64,000 nt of DNA. It comes from a virus. Made by a program: the position numbers and the translations under genes. Below the pieces are notes generated by a model. The model was not told the origin of the DNA, made no database searches, and was given only the letters and a program-made list of their open reading frames with translations. The stretch is taken from positions 11,321 through 75,320 of IMG/VR virus record IMGVR_UViG_3300006793_000021. One strand, given 5' to 3'. Shown here piece after piece: positions 2,726 to 46,246 of this stretch (positions within the stretch are counted from its first letter, which is position 1; every line of letters starts with the position of its first letter).

Positions 2726-3742
2726 ATGAAACGGACTATAGTTATTCTGTCTGCTCTTTTCGCTTTGATATCATTTCAAGCATTTGCAGACACAAAGACC
2801 CTCGAAGAAAGAGTTGCTGATTTAGAAAAGTCAGCACCAACGTTACCAACAGGAATGTTTGTTAACGGAAACATTGAAGTATATTACGATTCAGATACTT
2901 ATGATTCAGATTTTGATACACGAGCAGAAGTGTTTGTAGGACTACAATCTCAATTAGACGGCCCTATTGATTGGGCAGGCGCAAGTACTAGATTTGACTC
3001 TCATTATTCTTTAGATACAACATTAAACAATAGCATTGTTGAAAAACAAATTGGCGTTGGTTTAGGAAATACTAGACTTTATGTAGGCGAAACAGATGCA
3101 CAAAGACTAGGATTTGCTAAAACAGCTAAAATTGGTTTACCACTTATTATTACAGAATCTAATAGTAGAATTGACCATAAAGAAAAACTTGTACTAACAT
3201 TTGGCGGATGGGAAAATAATAACGAATTTGATTTTGATGAGCATAGACTAAGCAGAGATTTACCAATTGGATTTACTGTAGGTTATGATGCAGAAGCAAG
3301 TACAGTATACTTAGGTGGTACTGTAAGTTTAGCAGGATTTGCAGAACTATCATATATGCAAATTGGTAATAAAAACAATATTACTGACAACGAACTAAAT
3401 CAACAAGGTGTTGCTGTAGGTTCACAAGTATTACGTAGATACGGCATTCCAGTAGGATTTGGTGTTGAAGTATGGGACGATAAGAATACAGGATTAGCAA
3501 AAGATGATCGTGTTGACCTTGGTCTTATGTACAACTATTCTAAAGAAACAATGTTTACTGCACATAGAGTATTAAACGATGACTTAGGAACTGACGGTAC
3601 ATATCTTGGTGTAGTACATACAGTAGGACCAGTAGAAACAGGTTTCTATTATCATACAGATGTTAAAAATACAAGTGTATGGACAGGTGCAACAACTGAG
3701 AGTGACGATAGTATTAAAGCTACTCTTAAGTACAAGTTTTAA
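2726..3742 (+). CDS. Outer-membrane porin-like beta-barrel protein
   Basis: Sec signal peptide MKRTIVILSALFALISFQAFA, short coiled coil LEERVADLEK, alternating amphipathic beta strands, C-terminal beta signal KATLKYKF. Confidence 0.8.
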   Translation: MKRTIVILSALFALISFQAFADTKTLEERVADLEKSAPTLPTGMFVNGNIEVYYDSDTYDSDFDTRAEVFVGLQSQLDGPIDWAGASTRFDSHYSLDTTLNNSIVEKQIGVGLGNTRLYVGETDAQRLGFAKTAKIGLPLIITESNSRIDHKEKLVLTFGGWENNNEFDFDEHRLSRDLPIGFTVGYDAEASTVYLGGTVSLAGFAELSYMQIGNKNNITDNELNQQGVAVGSQVLRRYGIPVGFGVEVWDDKNTGLAKDDRVDLGLMYNYSKETMFTAHRVLNDDLGTDGTYLGVVHTVGPVETGFYYHTDVKNTSVWTGATTESDDSIKATLKYKF

Positions 3743-3754
3743 TAAATAATATTA

Positions 3755-3797
3755 CGTTCAGCCAATAGGCCGGGAGTAGCACAAGCGAAGGAACGCA
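3755..3797 (+). ncRNA. Glutamine riboswitch-like element (glnA / Downstream-peptide class)
   Basis: CGTTCA-GCC AATA GGC-CGGGAGTAG-CACAAGC-GAAGGAACGC: closing stem CGTTC/GAACG, CGGRAGTAG and GAAGGAACGC E-loop-like segments; upstream of SD and a short ORF. Confidence 0.75.
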
Positions 3798-3822
3798 CTT
3801 AACCTTTAACAAGGAGAGTGTT

Positions 3823-3921
3823 ATGGATAATTACACGCTTTGGTGCTTTCAACGAATCATTAAACAGCACCATATAAAAAAAGTTAACTTTTTATTAAAA
3901 AAGAGGTTGACTTCTGCTTAA
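3823..3921 (+). CDS. 32-aa basic peptide downstream of riboswitch-like element (MDNYTLWCFQRIIKQHHIKKVNFLLKKRLTSA)
   Basis: SD AAGGAG at 3811-3816, ATG 3823, TAA 3919-3921; below the ORF-track size cutoff. Confidence 0.6.
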   Translation: MDNYTLWCFQRIIKQHHIKKVNFLLKKRLTSA

Positions 3922-3935
3922 TAGTTTGTTATATT
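3907..3935 (+). promoter_or_regulatory. Sigma70-type (early/host RNAP) promoter
   Basis: TTGACT-17 nt-TATATT with TG extended -10. Confidence 0.7.
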
Positions 3936-3941
3936 AAGTAC

Positions 3942-4184
3942 ATAAGTTAGACGACGGTGTAACTTAGATAGTGCAAGGAAGAGGAGTTACAGGCTCCGAA
4001 CTTGACTAGTAGCTGTAGTGGCATTGCGTGACTGTGGAGACACAGAGACGTATTTCCGAACGTAACTGTTTGGTGCGAGGTTTGCGGGAACGACAGACAG
4101 ACTGTTAACCGCATTGTTGGTATTCTGAAGTCCAACCTATCACTTTTATTAAAAGCTCGATACTTAATTGTGTCGGGCTTTTTT
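3942..4184 (+). ncRNA. Unidentified structured ncRNA (~240 nt) with putative pseudoknot
   Basis: Own promoter and terminator, no plausible + strand ORF, GC-richer than surroundings; several hairpins including a GAGA tetraloop; GATAG/CTATC closing helix. Confidence 0.65.
4151..4184 (+). terminator. Rho-independent terminator ending the ncRNA
   Basis: AAAAGCTCGATAC-TTAATT-GTGTCGGGCTTTTTT; G-U pairs support the + strand. Confidence 0.85.
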
Positions 4185-4193
4185 CTTTTATGA

Positions 4194-4297
4194 TAAATAC
4201 ATATGTCAAATAGTGTGCCGCAAGGCGGACTTATGCTGTTTAACCCACAGCGTAGCTCATAGAACGGGCATAGGACTACTTAAATAGGAGAAAACAA
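4194..4297 (+). promoter_or_regulatory. Late promoter plus structured 5' leader
   Basis: TAAATA at 4194-4199; three consecutive hairpins at 4212-4269 (one with GCAA tetraloop) before SD AGGAG. Confidence 0.55.
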
Positions 4298-4747
4298 ATG
4301 GGAAGACCACTTAATAAAAGATTATTCGGAACACCAACAGCTAATGGTTCTGAAGTTAAAGTAAACTTTCATAACGGCACAGCAGTTAAAGAAGGTTATA
4401 TCGTAAAGCAAAAAGGCTCAAAGAAATTTGTATGTGAAGAAATTGAAACAGCAGGCGAATTTACTTGTGTACTAACAACTGGTAAATTACCAGCGGCACT
4501 AGCGGCAGGCGAAATGTCAATTTCATTCAAAATGGATGATGCAGAAACATACACAGTAAGTAAAATTGCTGGACGTAAAGCAACATTATCAGCACCAAGT
4601 GCAACAGGTACTAACTTATATGACGGCAACAGTGTTGCTTGGAACTTTAGTACATCTGTAGCAGATGGAGCGGCACAAGTTGAAGAAGCAGGTGATGATA
4701 ACACATTAACTGGTACTGATGACGACGACTTTACAGAAGACGCATAA
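4298..4747 (+). CDS. Hypothetical virion-associated protein
   Basis: 149 aa, SD AGGAG, acidic tail, codon usage like the structural genes. Confidence 0.75.
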   Translation: MGRPLNKRLFGTPTANGSEVKVNFHNGTAVKEGYIVKQKGSKKFVCEEIETAGEFTCVLTTGKLPAALAAGEMSISFKMDDAETYTVSKIAGRKATLSAPSATGTNLYDGNSVAWNFSTSVADGAAQVEEAGDDNTLTGTDDDDFTEDA

Positions 4748-10100: not shown

Positions 10101-12225
10101 TATTACTACTTCCGCAGTAGATACTGACCTTGATTTAAGATCAACAAACAGAATATATGTACCAAACGCAGACGTAGAAGTAACTAATAATACCACTGTT
10201 AGTGGTGTCACAGACCTGCGTACAACGTCTCTAAGCGGTAGTTTAACACACGTTGGTACTAGAACAATAACTAACGAAGAAACACGCTTAAAGGGCTTTA
10301 TATACGAACGAAATGTAAATCACTGGAGGAATTTTGGTGCTATTGACGGAAATAGTTCTGCTGTATATGACGGTGTAACATATAATGCAGGAAGCAATGT
10401 TCCTGAGATTAATATTGGCGGAGCCACATATGTTCAAGGTACTCTAGTCGATGTTGACGGGCCTAATTTTTATTTTACAATTCGAAAAGTAGGTGATACT
10501 GAAGTTGTAAATATTCCTTCACAATATACACAGGTTGGTAATTTAGATGTTACCGGACAAGTTGACTTCCAAGGAGATGTACAACTTACCGATGTTAATA
10601 TTAGTGACAATGTTATTACAACAACTATAGGTAATAATGATTTAGATTTACGTGCTTCAGGCACAGGTGAAGTTCTTATTGACGGCACCAATATGCGAGT
10701 TACACAAGACTTATTTGCCGCTAGTATAGCAACTAATGATATTTCAATTAACCAATCATTAGTACTTGATGAGCTTGTTATAACTGATAGTAATATTGAA
10801 ATTAATGAAAACTATATTAGTACTAAAGTATCTAATAGTGATTTACAATTACTTGCTACAGGCGATGTTACAGTAGCATCAAATGATGTTATACTTTCAC
10901 AGAACTTAACAGTTAACGGTACAACTACTCTTGCTAATACAAATATTACAGGTACACTTACACATGTTGGCGATAGAATACTCACAGGGGATTACAATCT
11001 TACTGGTAATTTAAATATCAGTTCTCTTGCTACAGATAGAGCTTTCCAATTTGATGATGTTAAAATAGAAGGTAATGTATTACAAACTACTTTGTCTAAT
11101 AGTAATTTAGATTTACGAGCCGCAGGTACAGGTGAAATATTATTTAATGAAGACTTGCATATTAATAAAAATTTAGATATAGGATCATTCAATGTTGATG
11201 CTGTTGCAGTAGACGATAATGTTTCATTAGAAGTTATTGAATTAAGTACAGATGTACAATTCTTTGATAATGTTATTACAACTACTAATTCAAATAGTGA
11301 TTTAGAATTACGCACAAATGGTACAGGTAGTGTATACCTTCAAGAACTAGATATCTTAGGCAACAACATATCAACTTCTGATTCAGCAATTACTATTGCA
11401 CCAACAGAAAATTTAAACATTACATCTACTACTGCTTTACTAATACCAAGAGGAACATCAGCTCAACGTGTACAAGATACAGGAAGCATATTAGATGGCG
11501 GATCAGCATTTAACAATGCATCTATACTAAGTGGTGGTAGTGCATCAACAGTATTTGATTCTGAATCAATAGTATATAATTCAGGTGCATCAATACTAGC
11601 AGATCAAGGAACTCCAGGAGCAATACGTTTTAACACTGACGATAATGTGTTTGAAGGAACTACGCAAAATACAGTAACATTTAATGGCGTTTATTCATCT
11701 GATAGATTAACTAGTGTACTTGCACATCCTACAAATGATACTATATTGTTTACTACAAATAGTGTAAGTGCTGGTGTTATAGATAGCACAGGAATTACAC
11801 TAAACGGCTTACAAGTAGACGATGTGTTTATTAATGATTCAACAATTACTACAAACGTTTCTAATAGTGATTTAGAATTAACACGTAACGGAAACGGAGA
11901 AGTAGTACTAAACAATATATCAATTATTGGAAATACTATTAAAAACAATACTAACAAAGGTGTTGTTAATATAGTAAATTCAGGATTTGGTTATACTAAA
12001 TTTACTGGTACTGGCGGTGTAGTTATTCCGTTTGGTGGCACAGCAACACAGCCTGATCCAGCAACAAATCCAATACCAGTAGGTGACACAAGATACAACA
12101 CTGATACTCAAATACTTGAAACTTGGGACGGCAACACGTACCTTACTTCAATGGGTCCTAACCCACCAATTACTCCAGCAGAGTTTAACGACTTGCTGTT
12201 GGAATACACTATTATCTTTGGGTAA
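7105..12225 (+). CDS. Giant repeat-rich virion structural protein (1706 aa, GTG start)
   Basis: GRISGPLL N-terminus, FYVAKGGND..G beta-helix entry motif, many (I)TT..SN.DLELRA.GTG repeats; TAAATA at 7078-7083 and SD GGGAG. Confidence 0.8.
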   Translation: MAQVGRISGPLLEENLLRQGIANGTQANLSFKNTNNDTTLLKVDVANGRIGVDLEAVANELQVSQTIQTTDLLSTTSNAGVANFTIIGNNIDAINNQAIYLDAGEHIQLSNLETEQFYISDNYILTKDTNTDIDFKFNGTGKLDIKSNLEVFGDIHAQGNVTLDGNITFGDADTDSIDFNADTADDIIPDVTDNYILGSTGYNWNTLHTELVNGQLITTGLVNVGNVFLDSRQGNIFYVAKGGNDTYTGDHPQAPLLTLKEALDRCDASTTGPVTVFIYPGEYEEICPLEVPANVSIMGNDLRNVIIKPTAGTNDKDIFLLNDSSTITEITVKDFYYNSTNNTGHAFRFAPDAVITNRSPYIKDVSVITKGSVTSASDPRGFAQGDAGKGALVDGADLNSASIEGSMLFHSATFITPNADALTMTNGVRVEWLNSFTYFAKRGMYAVRGSTGRTAYGTTNYGAELRSIGSANVYGTKGAEADGADTLMYLIQHNMAYIGAGKFVDNDPSRLIQANEITELNSGKIHFVTTDQGGSFRIGDNFFVDFETGNTTINIDDLSVNQFNALRINTGTNTTVIDGAFIDTGNLRIQNNIIQTDVGDLIIESAGKINLNDNTNVTGDVDIIGNFSYGGALNVKGNELSDALVFNAELQQNFNPHQNLTFSLGSFNNKWLIAHLSRMEVGDISIYDNVIETNVSDADLELRANGTGKILAPNNNVDVTNNLNVNGLATLANTNITGTVTHVGTTNQTGNTNISEDLNVTSTLDVDSNVQLEEILIDSNFITTTTSNADLELRAAGTGIVNLQDNVNVTDNVSADNIQTTSATFTANVTSDNANIGNIEINDNNISATSTDSNLILNANDEVRVLGTDTVFEQDLTVSGLSVIPNTNITGTLTHTGNRVTSPGSDLTLNGELTVDNVYIEDNFITTTTGNLLLEATGDIVADTNNVSITNDLTVSGVTTLDDTTINSTLTHVGDNVQTGNLAIGGRLDIDSINIDTNVITTSAVDTDLDLRSTNRIYVPNADVEVTNNTTVSGVTDLRTTSLSGSLTHVGTRTITNEETRLKGFIYERNVNHWRNFGAIDGNSSAVYDGVTYNAGSNVPEINIGGATYVQGTLVDVDGPNFYFTIRKVGDTEVVNIPSQYTQVGNLDVTGQVDFQGDVQLTDVNISDNVITTTIGNNDLDLRASGTGEVLIDGTNMRVTQDLFAASIATNDISINQSLVLDELVITDSNIEINENYISTKVSNSDLQLLATGDVTVASNDVILSQNLTVNGTTTLANTNITGTLTHVGDRILTGDYNLTGNLNISSLATDRAFQFDDVKIEGNVLQTTLSNSNLDLRAAGTGEILFNEDLHINKNLDIGSFNVDAVAVDDNVSLEVIELSTDVQFFDNVITTTNSNSDLELRTNGTGSVYLQELDILGNNISTSDSAITIAPTENLNITSTTALLIPRGTSAQRVQDTGSILDGGSAFNNASILSGGSASTVFDSESIVYNSGASILADQGTPGAIRFNTDDNVFEGTTQNTVTFNGVYSSDRLTSVLAHPTNDTILFTTNSVSAGVIDSTGITLNGLQVDDVFINDSTITTNVSNSDLELTRNGNGEVVLNNISIIGNTIKNNTNKGVVNIVNSGFGYTKFTGTGGVVIPFGGTATQPDPATNPIPVGDTRYNTDTQILETWDGNTYLTSMGPNPPITPAEFNDLLLEYTIIFG

Positions 12226-12388: not shown

Positions 12389-15300
12389 ATGAGCGCCATC
12401 GGTCGTATTAGCGGTCCGCTCTTAAAGTCGAATTTATTGCGTAACGGCATAGATTTAGCATTTGAGACGGATTTATTATATCTTGATGTAAACAATCAAC
12501 GCATCGGTATCAAAAACGCAACACCTCAATACGAGCTAGACATCACAGGTACAACACGTACAACAGATATAAGAGTTACAAATAGAGCAGACATTGGTGA
12601 TATCAATGTACTAGGTAATACTATTTGGAGCGACAACCAATACCTATACTTAGGTACAGTAGACAACATTGTTTACAACAACAAATTACGTGTAGATGAT
12701 ATTGACGTTGAAGGTAACGTTATTAGCACAAACACATCAAATTCAAACTTAGAATTACGTCCAAACGGAACAGGCGAAGTACATGTTTATTCAAACATGG
12801 AAGTGGACGGAAATATACATGCTACTGGAAATATTACAGCAGATGGTAATATTGTACTAGGTGATGCAGACACTGATAGTATTACTTTCAATGCAGATGT
12901 AGCATCAGATATTATACCAGATTTAGATAATACTTATAACTTAGGTTACAAAGGTACAGAGTATACACAAAATGCAGGTAACTTTGCATTAGGTGATGCT
13001 ACAATTACTGTTAGTAGCGGTACTGGAACACTTAACGTACCTGCAAGTGGTACTGCTTGGGCAGATGACGTTGTTAACACTACAGCAAACATTGCTGATA
13101 GTTTATTATTAGCATTACAGTCTACATCAGGAACACTACACAAAATTACAACAACTAGTGTTTGGACAGGAACAAATCCAAGACAAGCATCAATATCAGC
13201 ACCTAGCATTTTAGACGGAACTTACAACGTAGTTCAAGTTAACCTTGGTGCAAAACGTTGGGCTGATGTTTGGGTAGATAACATTGTAACTAACGGTATT
13301 AATACCGGAACTATTATTGTTGACGGAGTTGACCTAACACTACGCCAAGGTAACATTTTTTATGTTGCAGAAAATGGCGATGATACACATACAGGAACTC
13401 ATCAACAAGATCCTTTTGCAAGTATCAGTAAAGCACTTAGTGTTGCAAGTTCAGGAGATACAATTCATGTATATCCTGGTATATACACAGAAACATTTCC
13501 ACTAACTGTTCCAGTAGGAGTTACAGTTAAAGGACAAGGTATACGTGGCGTAACTATACAGCCAACAACAGCAACACGTTACAATGATGCATTTTTGCTC
13601 AATGGCGAAACGACTATTGAAGATTTAACAGTTAGTGATTTTTATAGTGGCGGAGCATTCCACGACACAACAGCGGCAAGCGCAGGATCTGCAACTTTAA
13701 ATGTTGGAACTGCACCATTTGCACACACGTATGTAAGTGGCGGAACAATTACATTTGGTGGCACTGATTATGCAATTACAAATGCTGTTTATACTCACGG
13801 AACTGGCGAATTAGTAATTACACACGCAGGACCAGATGCCGGCGTAGGAACAAATACATTTATTAAAGATATTGTGTTTAGTTGCAATGGCGGTAATAGA
13901 ACATTCCCAGACAACGGATATGCATTCCGTTTTGCTACAGACTTTGAAGTAACTAGTCGTTCACCATACATTAAAAATGTATCAGTAATTACAAAAGGTA
14001 GTGTAACAAGTGCAAGTGATCCAAGAGGCTTTGATGCAGGAGATGCAGGTAAAGGTGTATATGTAGATGGTGCATACGCAACTATAAATTCTAAAGAAGC
14101 GGCAATGTTATTTCATAGTGCAACATTTATTACTCCAGGAGTTGATGCACTTACAGCAACAAACGGTGCTAGAATAGAATGGTTAAACTCATTTACATAT
14201 TTTGCAAATAGATCAGCATACGCATTTGATAGTAACGATGGTCTAAAAGGCGAAGGTAAAACACGTATTAGATTAAGTGGTATCTCCGGCACATTTGCTG
14301 GCGGCGAAACAATTACATTTACATCTACAGATAATTCAACAGTAGTTACTAAAGTAATTAACAGTGTTGAAAACAGCGACACACTTGTTATTAATGGAAA
14401 AGACACAGGCTTATTAGGATTTGACTTTACTCCGTTAAGTATATCATCAAGTGGCGGAGCAAGTGCTACTGCTATTGAAAGTTTAGATCTAAGAGACTTT
14501 GGTGCTGAAATACGCATGATTGGTAGTGCTAGTGTTTACGGTAATAATGGCTTAGTAGGTGACGGACCAGGTGTATTAGTTTACGCTATTGGACACAACC
14601 TTGCATATATTGGTAATGGTAAAGCAGTTACTAATGATCCATCAACTGTAATACAATCACAAGAAGTTATTGAATCTAACGATGCACAAATACGTTATAA
14701 CTCAGTTGACCATAAAGGTGACTTTAGAGTTGGTGATTTATTTTATGTAAACCAAGAAACAGGTAGTGCTTCATTTAGTGTTAGTGATTTTGTAATTAAC
14801 ACAACTAACGGAGTTACATTTAACACAGGTAGCGACACTACTTTTGTTGATGGTTCAAAAATTGAAACTGGTGATTGGCGTATAAGTGGCAACACAATAC
14901 AAACACTAACACAAGATGCAAACTTTAATGCCGCTAGTGGTACAATTAAATTAAATGATAATGTAGATATTACAGGTAACCTTGATGTAACAGGTAATGT
15001 TACAATTGGCGGTAATATTACAATTGGTGACGAAGCAACAGATACAATAGAAATTGTTGCAGGAATTGATAGTGACATTATTCCTAAACTTAATGGTGTA
15101 TATAGCTTAGGTGAAGCAACTAAACAATGGAGCAATATTTGGGTCAATCAAGTTAACATTGATAGTATAAAAATACGTGATAACTTTATTGAAACTACAG
15201 AGTCAAATGCAGATTTAGAAATAAGAGCAAACGGCACTGGCAACATCTATATACCAAACAATAATGTACAAATTGATAATGCTCTTACAGTTGCAGGACT

Positions 15301-44599: not shown

Positions 44600-46246
44600 A
44601 TGGCTTTAAATTTTCCAGACGCACCTAATGCAGACGATACTTATACCGAAGGTAGTGTAACCTGGGTATATGACGGCACTGTATGGAACATACAAGCAAG
44701 TTCTGCATCATCAGATCAAAACTTATTTGATACAATTAATGCAGATACAGGAACAGTAACAGCATCTAATACAACTGATGCATTAACAGTTGCTGGCGGT
44801 ACAAATGTAACTACTGCTATTGTTGGAAAGACGCTTACTATTAATTCTAGCGCAGTAGGAGGATCGTCAGATGTTATTAAAACAGTTACTACTGATGACG
44901 GATCGTATACAGCAAGTGGAGAAGATACTTTAAAAATATTAGGTAGAACAAATATTTCTACAGAGCTTACTACAAATACAAATGAATTACATATTGATTT
45001 AGACTCACACAGTATTGACTTTTTAAGTGATGTTGATACAACAACTTCTGCGCCAGCAGTTGGGCAAGTGTTAAAGTGGGATGGTGTACAATGGGCACCA
45101 GGCTTTGACTCTACAACAGGCGGCGGTGGTACTGATGCAGATACTTTTGATGGATTTGACAGTACCTACTTTTTAAACTATAATAACTTAACCAATACAC
45201 CAACTGTTGCTACACTATCAGACTTTAGTGTAGGCAATGAAAGAACACCAGACGGTAATGGTGCTATTGAATATGATAATACAACAGGTGTGTTTAGATA
45301 TACACCACCAACACCGGGCGGTATTGGTGCATTAAGTGCAGAAGTAAATGATTTATCTGATGCAGTTACTTGGGCAGATGTACCAGATGCAAATATTACA
45401 CAATCAAGTGTTACACAACACCAAGCCGCACTAAGCGTAACAGAATCACAAATTAGCGACTTAGGTAGTTATATTACAGACTACACAGTAGTTGCTAATG
45501 ACTTAAATGCTATTAGCGTGGGCGCACTTAGCGATGTTGATCTTACTGGAGTTAGTAACGGAGAAGTGTTAGCATGGAACAATACTAACAGTAGATTTGA
45601 ACCAGCATCTCCTGCAGGATCAGGCGGTATTGCACTAACAGATTTAAGTGTAACATCAAATACGCCAAGCGGCACAGGCACACTTACGTATGACAATGCT
45701 ACTGGAGCATTTAGTTACACACCACCTGTTACAGGTGCAACTGAAATTGACGATTTAAGTGATGTTAGTATTGCTTGGGTTGGTAACTTACCATTAGATA
45801 ATAAAGGACAGTTATTAAGTTGGACTGGTAGTACATTTATTAACTATACAGGTACTACTATTGATAAGATTACAGAAAACACATTAGTAGAATTTCAAGT
45901 TGGTAATGTAGGTACACAGTCTTACAATTTCTTTCCACATTATTCAGGACAAAATCCAACAATATATGTAATGTCAGGCACAACAGTTTCGTTTAAATTA
46001 GACGGAGCTCAAGGACATCCATTTGCTATTCAAGATCCTACAGGAACTACAATTACAGATGCTACACAAATTTTCCATGTACAAACTAATGGTAATAAAA
46101 CTACTGGCTCATTAGCACAAGGTAGATCAGAAGGTGTATTGTATTGGAGAATACCTGAAAGTTATTCAGGTGGTTATAGATATCAGTGTACTGCTCACCC
46201 TGCTATGGTTGGATCAATTCAAATAAAAAGATTTAGTCAAATTTAA
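44600..46246 (+). CDS. Tail fiber-like protein with C-terminal cupredoxin-like domain
   Basis: MALNFPD.P start, LSDVD...GQVL.W repeats, YDN.TG.F.YTPP, GHPF...YQCTAHPAM.G.I; TAAATA at 44572-44577. Confidence 0.75.
   Translation: MALNFPDAPNADDTYTEGSVTWVYDGTVWNIQASSASSDQNLFDTINADTGTVTASNTTDALTVAGGTNVTTAIVGKTLTINSSAVGGSSDVIKTVTTDDGSYTASGEDTLKILGRTNISTELTTNTNELHIDLDSHSIDFLSDVDTTTSAPAVGQVLKWDGVQWAPGFDSTTGGGGTDADTFDGFDSTYFLNYNNLTNTPTVATLSDFSVGNERTPDGNGAIEYDNTTGVFRYTPPTPGGIGALSAEVNDLSDAVTWADVPDANITQSSVTQHQAALSVTESQISDLGSYITDYTVVANDLNAISVGALSDVDLTGVSNGEVLAWNNTNSRFEPASPAGSGGIALTDLSVTSNTPSGTGTLTYDNATGAFSYTPPVTGATEIDDLSDVSIAWVGNLPLDNKGQLLSWTGSTFINYTGTTIDKITENTLVEFQVGNVGTQSYNFFPHYSGQNPTIYVMSGTTVSFKLDGAQGHPFAIQDPTGTTITDATQIFHVQTNGNKTTGSLAQGRSEGVLYWRIPESYSGGYRYQCTAHPAMVGSIQIKRFSQI

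Follow-up and report, generated by a model that had tools for sequence, protein, structure and literature searches.

The window considered here is the 64,000-nucleotide (nt) stretch at positions 11,321 to 75,320 of the IMG/VR virus record IMGVR_UViG_3300006793_000021, a 75-kb record with a CheckV completeness of 21%. Between an open reading frame (ORF) of 338 amino acids (aa) at 2726-3742 and one of 149 aa at 4298-4747 lies a 555-nt non-coding stretch with three RNA elements. A default Rfam scan of that stretch reports two of them only, a glutamine riboswitch and a freshwater-2 RNA. The third element lies between these two and is very probably a diverged manA RNA (RF01745), preceded by a sigma70-type promoter and followed by an intrinsic terminator. 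We favor, at a probability of roughly 60%, the interpretation that it is a discrete trans-acting RNA which is made by the host polymerase and self-associates through two loop pairings, L5-L7 and L8-L9, into closed oligomers.

The manA RNAs were described from marine metagenomes and T4-like cyanophages and were rated as probable cis-regulatory riboswitch candidates, with a questionable pseudoknot marked in the structure (Weinberg et al. 2010, Genome Biol 11:R31, PMC2864571). Their role was still called unverified in a cyanophage paper of 2023 (PMC9964418). A permissive Rfam scan of positions 3700-4350 of the window (651 nt) aligned manA to 3944-4146 over the full length of the model (model positions 1-192 of 192), with 40.8 bits and an E-value of 4.4e-9. 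Because 40.8 bits is under the gathering cut-off of 55.2 bits, the default scan misses this RNA. The initial annotation, a reading of the sequence alone, had described here a structured RNA that it could not assign to any class. That claim falls with the membership in a known family, and the Rfam scan proposed as a check gives manA when permissive and nothing at the default cut-off. The origin of the window agrees with the family, as the record is viral and capsid and other structural genes are present.

The neighboring proteins were used to collect 98 related viral loci. The Rfam manA model was run over 50 representative records (eight further representatives lay outside this set) and matched at E <= 0.01 in 24 of them with 25-61 bits; six of the 50 pass the cut-off. 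Syntenic relatives range from 38 to 61.1 bits, and the two loci L003 (61.1 bits) and L028 (58.6 bits) carry manA at the syntenic place. A covariance model, R1, was built from a MAFFT alignment (A1) of 23 copies and the manA-derived structure of the window RNA. It matches the window at 3943-4150 and has matches in 55 of 99 sources. An invariant-core pattern found at least 120 further viral stretches, 80 loci of which were examined, and in this wider set R1 gives 78 matches in 82 sources. The pooled set contains 77 distinct RNAs with usable flanks, that is, the window and 76 distinct relatives.

An unbroken series of homologues thus connects the window RNA to members above the cut-off. R1 recovers all of them, together with the copy in Pelagibacter phage Mosig, which reaches 64 bits with the Rfam model. 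The canonical cyanophage copies score 184.1 bits (P-SSM4) and 181.6 bits (P-SSM2), and no manA match was found in Syn9 and S-PM2. When 3700-4350 was compared with isolate phages by blastn, four Methylophilales phage Melnitz records matched, in the glutamine-riboswitch part only, and the RNA itself had no match. With the RNAs of two relatives as queries, the sole match was Pelagibacter phage Mosig. Relative to the literature searched, what is new is a subfamily under the Rfam cut-off, its presence in jumbo phages and pelagiphages, and many stand-alone copies with covarying kissing loops. Because the cut-off misses this subfamily, manA is under-annotated outside cyanophages. In P-SSM4, the hypothetical coding sequence (CDS) PSSM4_169.1 (L228 585-758; AY940168.2 164884-165057) lies nearly all inside the 184-bit manA RNA (164829-165014) and is probably a spurious gene call.

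The RNA and its flanking signals are laid out as follows, with the pairing and covariation found among relatives.

3907-3935, plus strand: sigma70-type promoter TTGACT-17 nt-TATATT, TG-extended, ending 7 nt before P1.
3943-4146, plus strand: manA-family RNA core with helices P1-P9, delimited by RF01745 (3944-4146), R1 (3943-4150) and covariation.
3943-3966, plus strand: P1, 5' hairpin TAAGTTA..TAACTTA with inner AC/GT; 6 of 9 pairs change on both sides.
3967-3971 / 4137-4141, plus strand: P2, GATAG / CTATC, closing the multiloop; 93.6% of cells paired.
3974-4004, plus strand: P3, CAAG/CTTG around a GGAGTT/GGCTCC hairpin; outer 4 pairs invariant, 4 of 5 inner pairs change on both sides.
4006-4079, plus strand: P4, CTAGTA/TGCGAG, enclosing P5, P6 and P7; 89.4% paired, 3 of 6 pairs change on both sides.
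4012-4022, plus strand: P5 hairpin with loop L5, TAGT, at 4016-4019; L5 pairs with L7 in relatives.
4025-4052, plus strand: P6, extended hairpin TGCGT..ACGTA plus CTGTG..CACAG with the GNRA loop GAGA at 4037-4040; 8 of 10 pairs change on both sides.
4056-4073, plus strand: P7 hairpin CCGAA..TTTGG with loop L7, ACTG, at 4065-4068; 95.7% paired, 4 of 5 pairs change on both sides.
4083-4113, plus strand: P8, TGCGG..CCGCA around ACAG..CTGT with loop L8, CAGA, at 4098-4101; outer helix 95.7% paired, 5 of 5 pairs covary.
4116-4136, plus strand: P9 hairpin GTTGG..CCAAC with loop L9, TCTG, at 4124-4127; 100% paired, one pair covaries.
4151-4189, plus strand: intrinsic terminator with an A-tract, a 13-pair hairpin and a T-run, starting 10 nt past the closing helix.

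The plus strand folds with an energy of -79.8 kcal/mol (z -3.57), which none of 200 shuffles matches, and the minus strand has a z of -2.14. RNAalifold recovered only 29 pairs from the raw MAFFT alignment because the variable helices were misaligned, and the manA-derived structure was then mapped onto the alignment by hand. The structure played no part in making this alignment. Of its cells, 86.3% are paired versus 33-45% in controls slid by 1-3 columns, and changes on both sides occur at 32 of the 61 pairs. For four of five measures none of 500 shuffles reaches the observed value, and for the other one, further pair types, 416 of the 500 reach it. In a second alignment fitted to the model (A2), 87.6% of cells are paired (slid controls, 33-46%) and 36 of the 61 pairs change on both sides. 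Compensatory changes in both alignments therefore uphold the manA consensus structure, a 5' hairpin followed by a closed multi-helix junction.

Some parts of the structure do not vary enough to be informative. P2 is beyond the covariation test because ATAG/CTAT is invariant, and covariation is likewise silent on the outer P3 and most of P9. Only 68% of the cells of the inner P3 helix pair because the alignment is poor there. The junction nucleotides ATAGTGCAAGGAA, AACTTG and CCTAT are invariant among relatives, and in most of them L6 is GAGA or GAAA, a GNRA loop.

Most of the structure proposed by the initial annotation agrees with this consensus. Its 5' hairpin, GATAG/CTATC, CAAG/CTTG, GGAG/CTCC, TGCGT/ACGTA extended by CTGTG-GAGA-CACAG, and GTTGG/CCAAC all correspond to manA helices, and the covariation among homologs that it asked for is found. 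ARAGORN reports neither a tRNA nor a transfer-messenger RNA (tmRNA) in the window, as had been stated. The helix CTGTTTG/CAGACAG (4066-4072 / 4094-4100) was abandoned, since it is paired in 45.9% of cells versus 33.5-45.9% for its slid controls; CCGAA/TTTGG (P7) and ACAG/CTGT are the conserved alternatives. The TGCGG/CCGCA pairing, drawn as a pseudoknot, is real as a pairing, and its topology is that of a nested helix, P8, which encloses ACAG/CTGT. Tertiary loop pairing does exist, at L5-L7 and L8-L9 and not at the positions proposed.

For practical purposes, neither a chance fold nor a minus-strand protein gene (ORF 3947-4135, 62 aa, TTG start) is tenable. The only point for such a gene is that the ORF exists. 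The open frame shifts strand, frame and length among relatives, the RNA lengths differ by 1-5 nt, and no ORF is conserved across the RNA. A chance fold is rejected because the helix substitutions are compensatory and the covariance-model E-values (Rfam manA, R1) are 1e-9 or lower.

The loops of the hairpins bear on what the RNA may do. A cryo-EM preprint of July 2026 reports that manA RNAs form closed assemblies built from pentamers, namely a 60-subunit icosahedral-like cage, decamers and octamers (bioRxiv 10.64898/2026.07.01.735769). In one set the pentamers are joined by the intermolecular kissing loops L5-L7' and L8-L9', and in the other L5-L7' and L3-L8' act along with an L6 GNRA-receptor contact (10.64898/2026.07.01.735769). 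The same preprint still calls manA a putative cis-regulatory 5' untranslated region (UTR) element (10.64898/2026.07.01.735769). Among the relatives of the window RNA, L5 and L7 pair in 95.5% of 88 cells, and their second pair covaries as A-U (12), G-C (6) and G-U (4). For L8 and L9, the longest complementary run averages 3.97 in matched loops versus 3.20 in mismatched ones over 48 loop-pair types, and in 5000 permutations the observed value is never reached. The solutions vary widely, with CAGA:TCTG, GAGAG:TTCTC, ATGA:TCAT, AATGAT:ATCATT, AGGAT:ATCCT, GCTGAT:ATCAGT and ATGGAAT:ATTCCAT all found. The putative L8-L9 pairing is much better supported than L5-L7. That the loop pairs which hold the cages of the preprint covary in natural phage populations supports the view that the assemblies are biologically meaningful.

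The sigma70 promoter named by the initial annotation is present at 3907-3935. A consensus scan finds 7 promoter-like sites versus 8.6+/-3.4 expected, which is not above chance, so the case for the promoter comes from its conservation. The pattern TTGAC-N16-18-TAnnnT, ending 7-13 nt before P1, is kept in 20 of 20 distinct RNAs at related loci. Of the 61 distinct RNAs in the wider set, 51 have the strict pattern, a further seven keep TTG-N3 with an extended -10 and a variant -35, and three are without it. TTGACA-17-TATAAT lies directly upstream of manA in both P-SSM4 and P-SSM2. Because it recurs in the jumbo-phage loci, the wider set and these cyanophages, a promoter abutting P1 is a trait of the family. 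The terminator, which had also been claimed, extends over 4151-4189. A terminator follows P2 within ~15 nt in 19 of 20 distinct related loci, with unrelated stems, and terminators stand 3' of 50 of the 77 distinct RNAs, formed by 43 different hairpins. The fold, the covariation and the conserved flanks together support the claim of a structured non-coding RNA with its own promoter and terminator. No description of manA as a promoter-to-terminator gene was found in the main texts of the literature searched, although supplements might hold one.

The other elements of the non-coding stretch frame this RNA on both sides.

3753-3799, plus strand: glutamine riboswitch aptamer (RF01739), 42.3 bits versus a cut-off of 35.
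3823-3921, plus strand: conserved 32-aa ORF (MDNYTLWCF..QHH.KK..) located 3' of the glutamine riboswitch; its end overlaps the manA promoter.
4192-4200, plus strand: GATAAATAC motif, T4-late-promoter-like, conserved after the terminator.
4214-4300, plus strand: freshwater-2 RNA leader (RF02980), 67.9 bits versus a cut-off of 49.9, extending into the ribosome-binding site and start codon of the 149-aa ORF.

The major head protein at 1428-2600 matches phrog_138 and is 67-71% identical to its counterparts in jumbo myoviruses (Vibrio phage 2.275.O, 349 kb; PA5oct-like Pseudomonas phages including PA5oct; others). The source of the window is a marine jumbo myovirus. The RNA is placed in the late region, as had been noted, among phage structural genes with the different, T4-late-like motif GATAAATAC. 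We take this motif to resemble the T4 late promoter TATAAATA. Where the RNA of related loci lies directly upstream of the 149-aa gene, the motif is conserved 3' of the terminator and the freshwater-2 leader comes after it. The freshwater-2 RNA is kept in 19 of 20 related marine phage loci scanned, whether manA is present or absent. This conservation, its position after GATAAATAC and its extension into the start codon suggest that the freshwater-2 RNA, whatever its name, is a leader that belongs to a highly conserved late structural gene in marine jumbo phages. For the neighboring 338-aa, 149-aa, 121-aa and 32-aa ORFs, neither Pfam nor PHROGs gives a function, so the gene context is silent on a ligand or partner of manA. 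The 32-aa ORF is found in L016 and L221 as well. In the Melnitz records MZ577095-MZ577098 (e.g. 45147-45219), the sole isolate-phage match to window positions 3754-3825 falls under an SsrA-annotated feature, and what is annotated there may be the riboswitch, either alone or along with a tmRNA.

The same arrangement could be interpreted as a terminator-type riboswitch, with the manA fold as a metabolite aptamer and the hairpin at 4151-4189 as an expression platform that controls read-through from the sigma70 promoter into the 149-aa gene. The rating of manA as a probable 5' UTR riboswitch (Weinberg et al. 2010, PMC2864571) and the invariant junction nucleotides favor this interpretation. So does the mixture within the family of terminator-followed copies (50 of 77) with copies located 12-22 nt before a start codon, as in many riboswitch classes. 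However, the 5' arm of the terminator has no greater tendency to pair with the 3' part of the RNA than shuffled arms have (50 RNAs, mean z -0.32; window, z +1.1), and the 43 hairpins that follow the invariant 3' end of the RNA are unrelated to each other. These duplex energies reveal no competing pairing, which speaks against the terminator as a riboswitch expression platform. With or without manA, the downstream gene is equipped with a promoter-like motif and a leader of its own, and together with the terminator at 4151-4189 these place the window RNA outside the 5' UTR that the "Cis-reg" label of the family implies. In the genome G014, the cassette of small ORF, promoter, manA (59.8 bits) and terminator occupies a different genomic place, and there the next gene, which matches phrog_13024, is convergent. 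In L124 and L111, the next gene is a tRNA-Gly that begins 2 nt past the end of the R1 match and has the terminator behind it. No manA ligand was found in the literature searched. We consider a terminator-type riboswitch unlikely, and a cis-acting riboswitch in general less likely than a trans-acting, probably self-assembling phage RNA.

Exchange with tRNA genes is also seen where manA is missing. The slot upstream of the 149-aa gene holds three tRNAs (Trp, Gln and Cys) and no manA in L016 (2656-2884), and one tRNA (Gly) and no manA in L054 (2790-2863). L016 keeps the promoter position, which there drives a 20-codon ORF followed by a terminator. In L082, whose 338-aa protein is 93% identical to that of the window, the segment corresponding to window 3743-4136 is deleted, from the stop codon of the 338-aa ORF into P9. 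Directly behind that stop codon, L082 retains the final bases of the RNA (CCTATCAC...) and the terminator (L082 4010-4075), with the junction at a shared AA, so that the glutamine riboswitch, small ORF, promoter and manA were removed as one block. Because relatives have deleted the cassette or carry tRNA genes in its slot, it is accessory and dispensable in nature. In four other relatives, L117, L175, L113 and L165, no terminator occurs in the first ~100 nt after manA and conserved non-coding sequence follows, such as TATATGGGAACAACCTG.ACACAAGGCAGTTCATCCGAAGGC in L117 and L175. The conserved sequence may represent a further structured RNA that is transcribed together with manA. The viral contig L113 also has an ARAGORN tmRNA call at 12895-13351, with the tag peptide ANDNRAPAMAIAA; its reported end is past the 13275 bases of the locus, so the call is truncated there.

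The block deletion in L082 bears on a second alternative, in which manA is the structured 3' part of the transcript of the glutamine riboswitch and 32-aa ORF, such as a stabilizing 3' UTR or a processing product, and the "promoter" is secondary. Riboswitch, small ORF, promoter, manA and terminator occur together at two genomic places (the window and G014), and no terminator lies between the small ORF and manA. A glutamine-riboswitch-like core lies within 500 nt upstream in 17 of 76 distinct manA RNAs, and for this reason the riboswitch and manA can be said to travel often as one cassette. The remaining 59 of the 76 manA RNAs have no riboswitch core upstream, yet nearly all keep the promoter 5-15 nt from P1, as do the canonical cyanophage copies. 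A 3' UTR origin thus appears improbable, the more so of the two alternatives.

On expression, all 24 sequencing runs listed have no more than small shares of the stretch, and 19 of them are recorded as RNA. Four of these were examined (X1, X3, X4 and X8). In the marine metatranscriptome X8, a single 216-nt contig with a depth of 120 and 97% identity covers 3943-4155 only, a span that equals that from the predicted transcript start to the foot of the terminator. This is a weak hint of expression. In the metatranscriptomes X1, X3 and X4 there is little or no contig cover over 4058-4150, with sampled-word shares of at most 0.18; as contigs are silent on ends, strand and level, these gaps carry no weight.

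Under the trans-acting, self-associating interpretation, host RNA polymerase would transcribe a discrete RNA of ~245 nt (~3941 to ~4189) from the sigma70-type promoter. The promoter type suggests that this expression would precede, or be independent of, that of the surrounding late structural genes, and the "early" timing given in the initial annotation is likewise an inference from promoter type. The released RNA would act in trans, with no switching of the downstream gene in cis. By analogy with the family members seen by cryo-EM, it would self-associate through L5 TAGT with L7 ACTG and L8 CAGA with L9 TCTG, aided by the GNRA loop L6. Closed oligomers or cages based on pentamers would result from these contacts, and the RNA would then be a molecule of the kind that ROOL and GOLLD, two phage-borne cage RNAs, represent. 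To judge from these two, such an assembly might enclose or present other molecules.

Several observations weigh against this interpretation. The window RNA scores under the gathering cut-off of the family to which it is assigned. For L5-L7, a control slid by -3 is also paired in 79.5% of cells and the permutation test is not significant (1175 of 5000). The support for this contact therefore comes from one covarying pair and appears modest. Covariation gives the same signal for intermolecular and intramolecular loop pairing. The equation of the window loops with L5-L7 and L8-L9 of the preprint depends on counting the hairpins from 5' to 3' and on the GNRA loop L6, and the numbering is our inference. 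The assembly described in the preprint took place in vitro at high RNA concentration, with Mg2+ and heat annealing (10.64898/2026.07.01.735769). The X8 contig does not rise above a hint, because DNA can be present in an RNA library and a contig proves neither transcription nor the ends of a transcript. Finally, some copies do stand in front of genes. Pelagibacter phage Mosig (L100, MT647606.1 108164-108371, minus strand) has an unannotated manA with a TTGACA-17-TATATT promoter, which ends ~25 nt before the start codon of a putative rubrerythrin with no terminator between, and in P-SSM2 manA precedes purL without a terminator. Because these copies front genes directly, there is room for a cis role in the family.

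On balance, the locus fits the self-assembly evidence better than the older view of an mRNA leader switch. Databases list manA as a cis-regulatory riboswitch candidate, and many of the RNAs in the window and its 76 relatives are promoter-to-terminator RNA genes. A broader proposal, which we put forward tentatively and at somewhat less than even odds, is that manA RNAs are not riboswitches but widespread phage RNA genes that are made by the host polymerase and self-assemble into RNA-only cages in the infected cell, with kissing-loop interfaces kept by compensatory evolution. They would form an accessory module of the tRNA type, with its own promoter and terminator, that swaps with tRNA genes or is co-transcribed with them, a small-RNA counterpart of ROOL and GOLLD. 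Pelagibacter phage Mosig, with its cultured host, and synthetic transcripts of the window RNA are systems in which this can be tested.

Compared with the manA family as described, the window RNA has the same nine-helix architecture across the whole model, comes from a marine phage and, like the copies in P-SSM4 and P-SSM2, has a sigma70-type promoter immediately upstream of P1. Its L8 and L9 are complementary, and the loops of these two cyanophage copies, read by eye, are CTGT:ACAG. It differs in its score (40.8 versus 55.2), in its junction (GUGCAAGGAA versus the consensus GUGaCUGAAUAA), in a longer, GNRA-capped P6, and in its host genome, which is a jumbo myovirus and not a T4-like cyanophage. 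It is also followed by an intrinsic terminator and so is not the 5' UTR of the next gene. Riboswitches with a terminator platform resemble it in having a conserved complex fold with an intrinsic terminator close behind, but an alternative antiterminator pairing is not detectable for manA.

With the manA cages the window RNA shares the features of an A0F1-type interface, namely complementary L5/L7 (TAGT:ACTG) and L8/L9 (CAGA:TCTG) and the GNRA loop L6 GAGA, subject to the loop numbering adopted here. Oligomers were seen for the RNAs of the preprint, whereas the window RNA is known from its sequence and would belong to this set by its loops. manA has no sequence or structure relation to ROOL and GOLLD, and the window scans gave no Rfam match to either. 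ROOL is far longer than manA. GOLLD is too, at >800 nt in many members versus ~200 nt for manA (PMC12286853). ROOL and GOLLD are phage and prophage RNA nanocages that occur near tRNA genes (Nature 2025, PMC12286853). Like them, the manA RNAs described here are phage-borne and located near, or interchanging with, tRNA genes, and according to the preprint manA RNAs too form closed assemblies made of RNA only.

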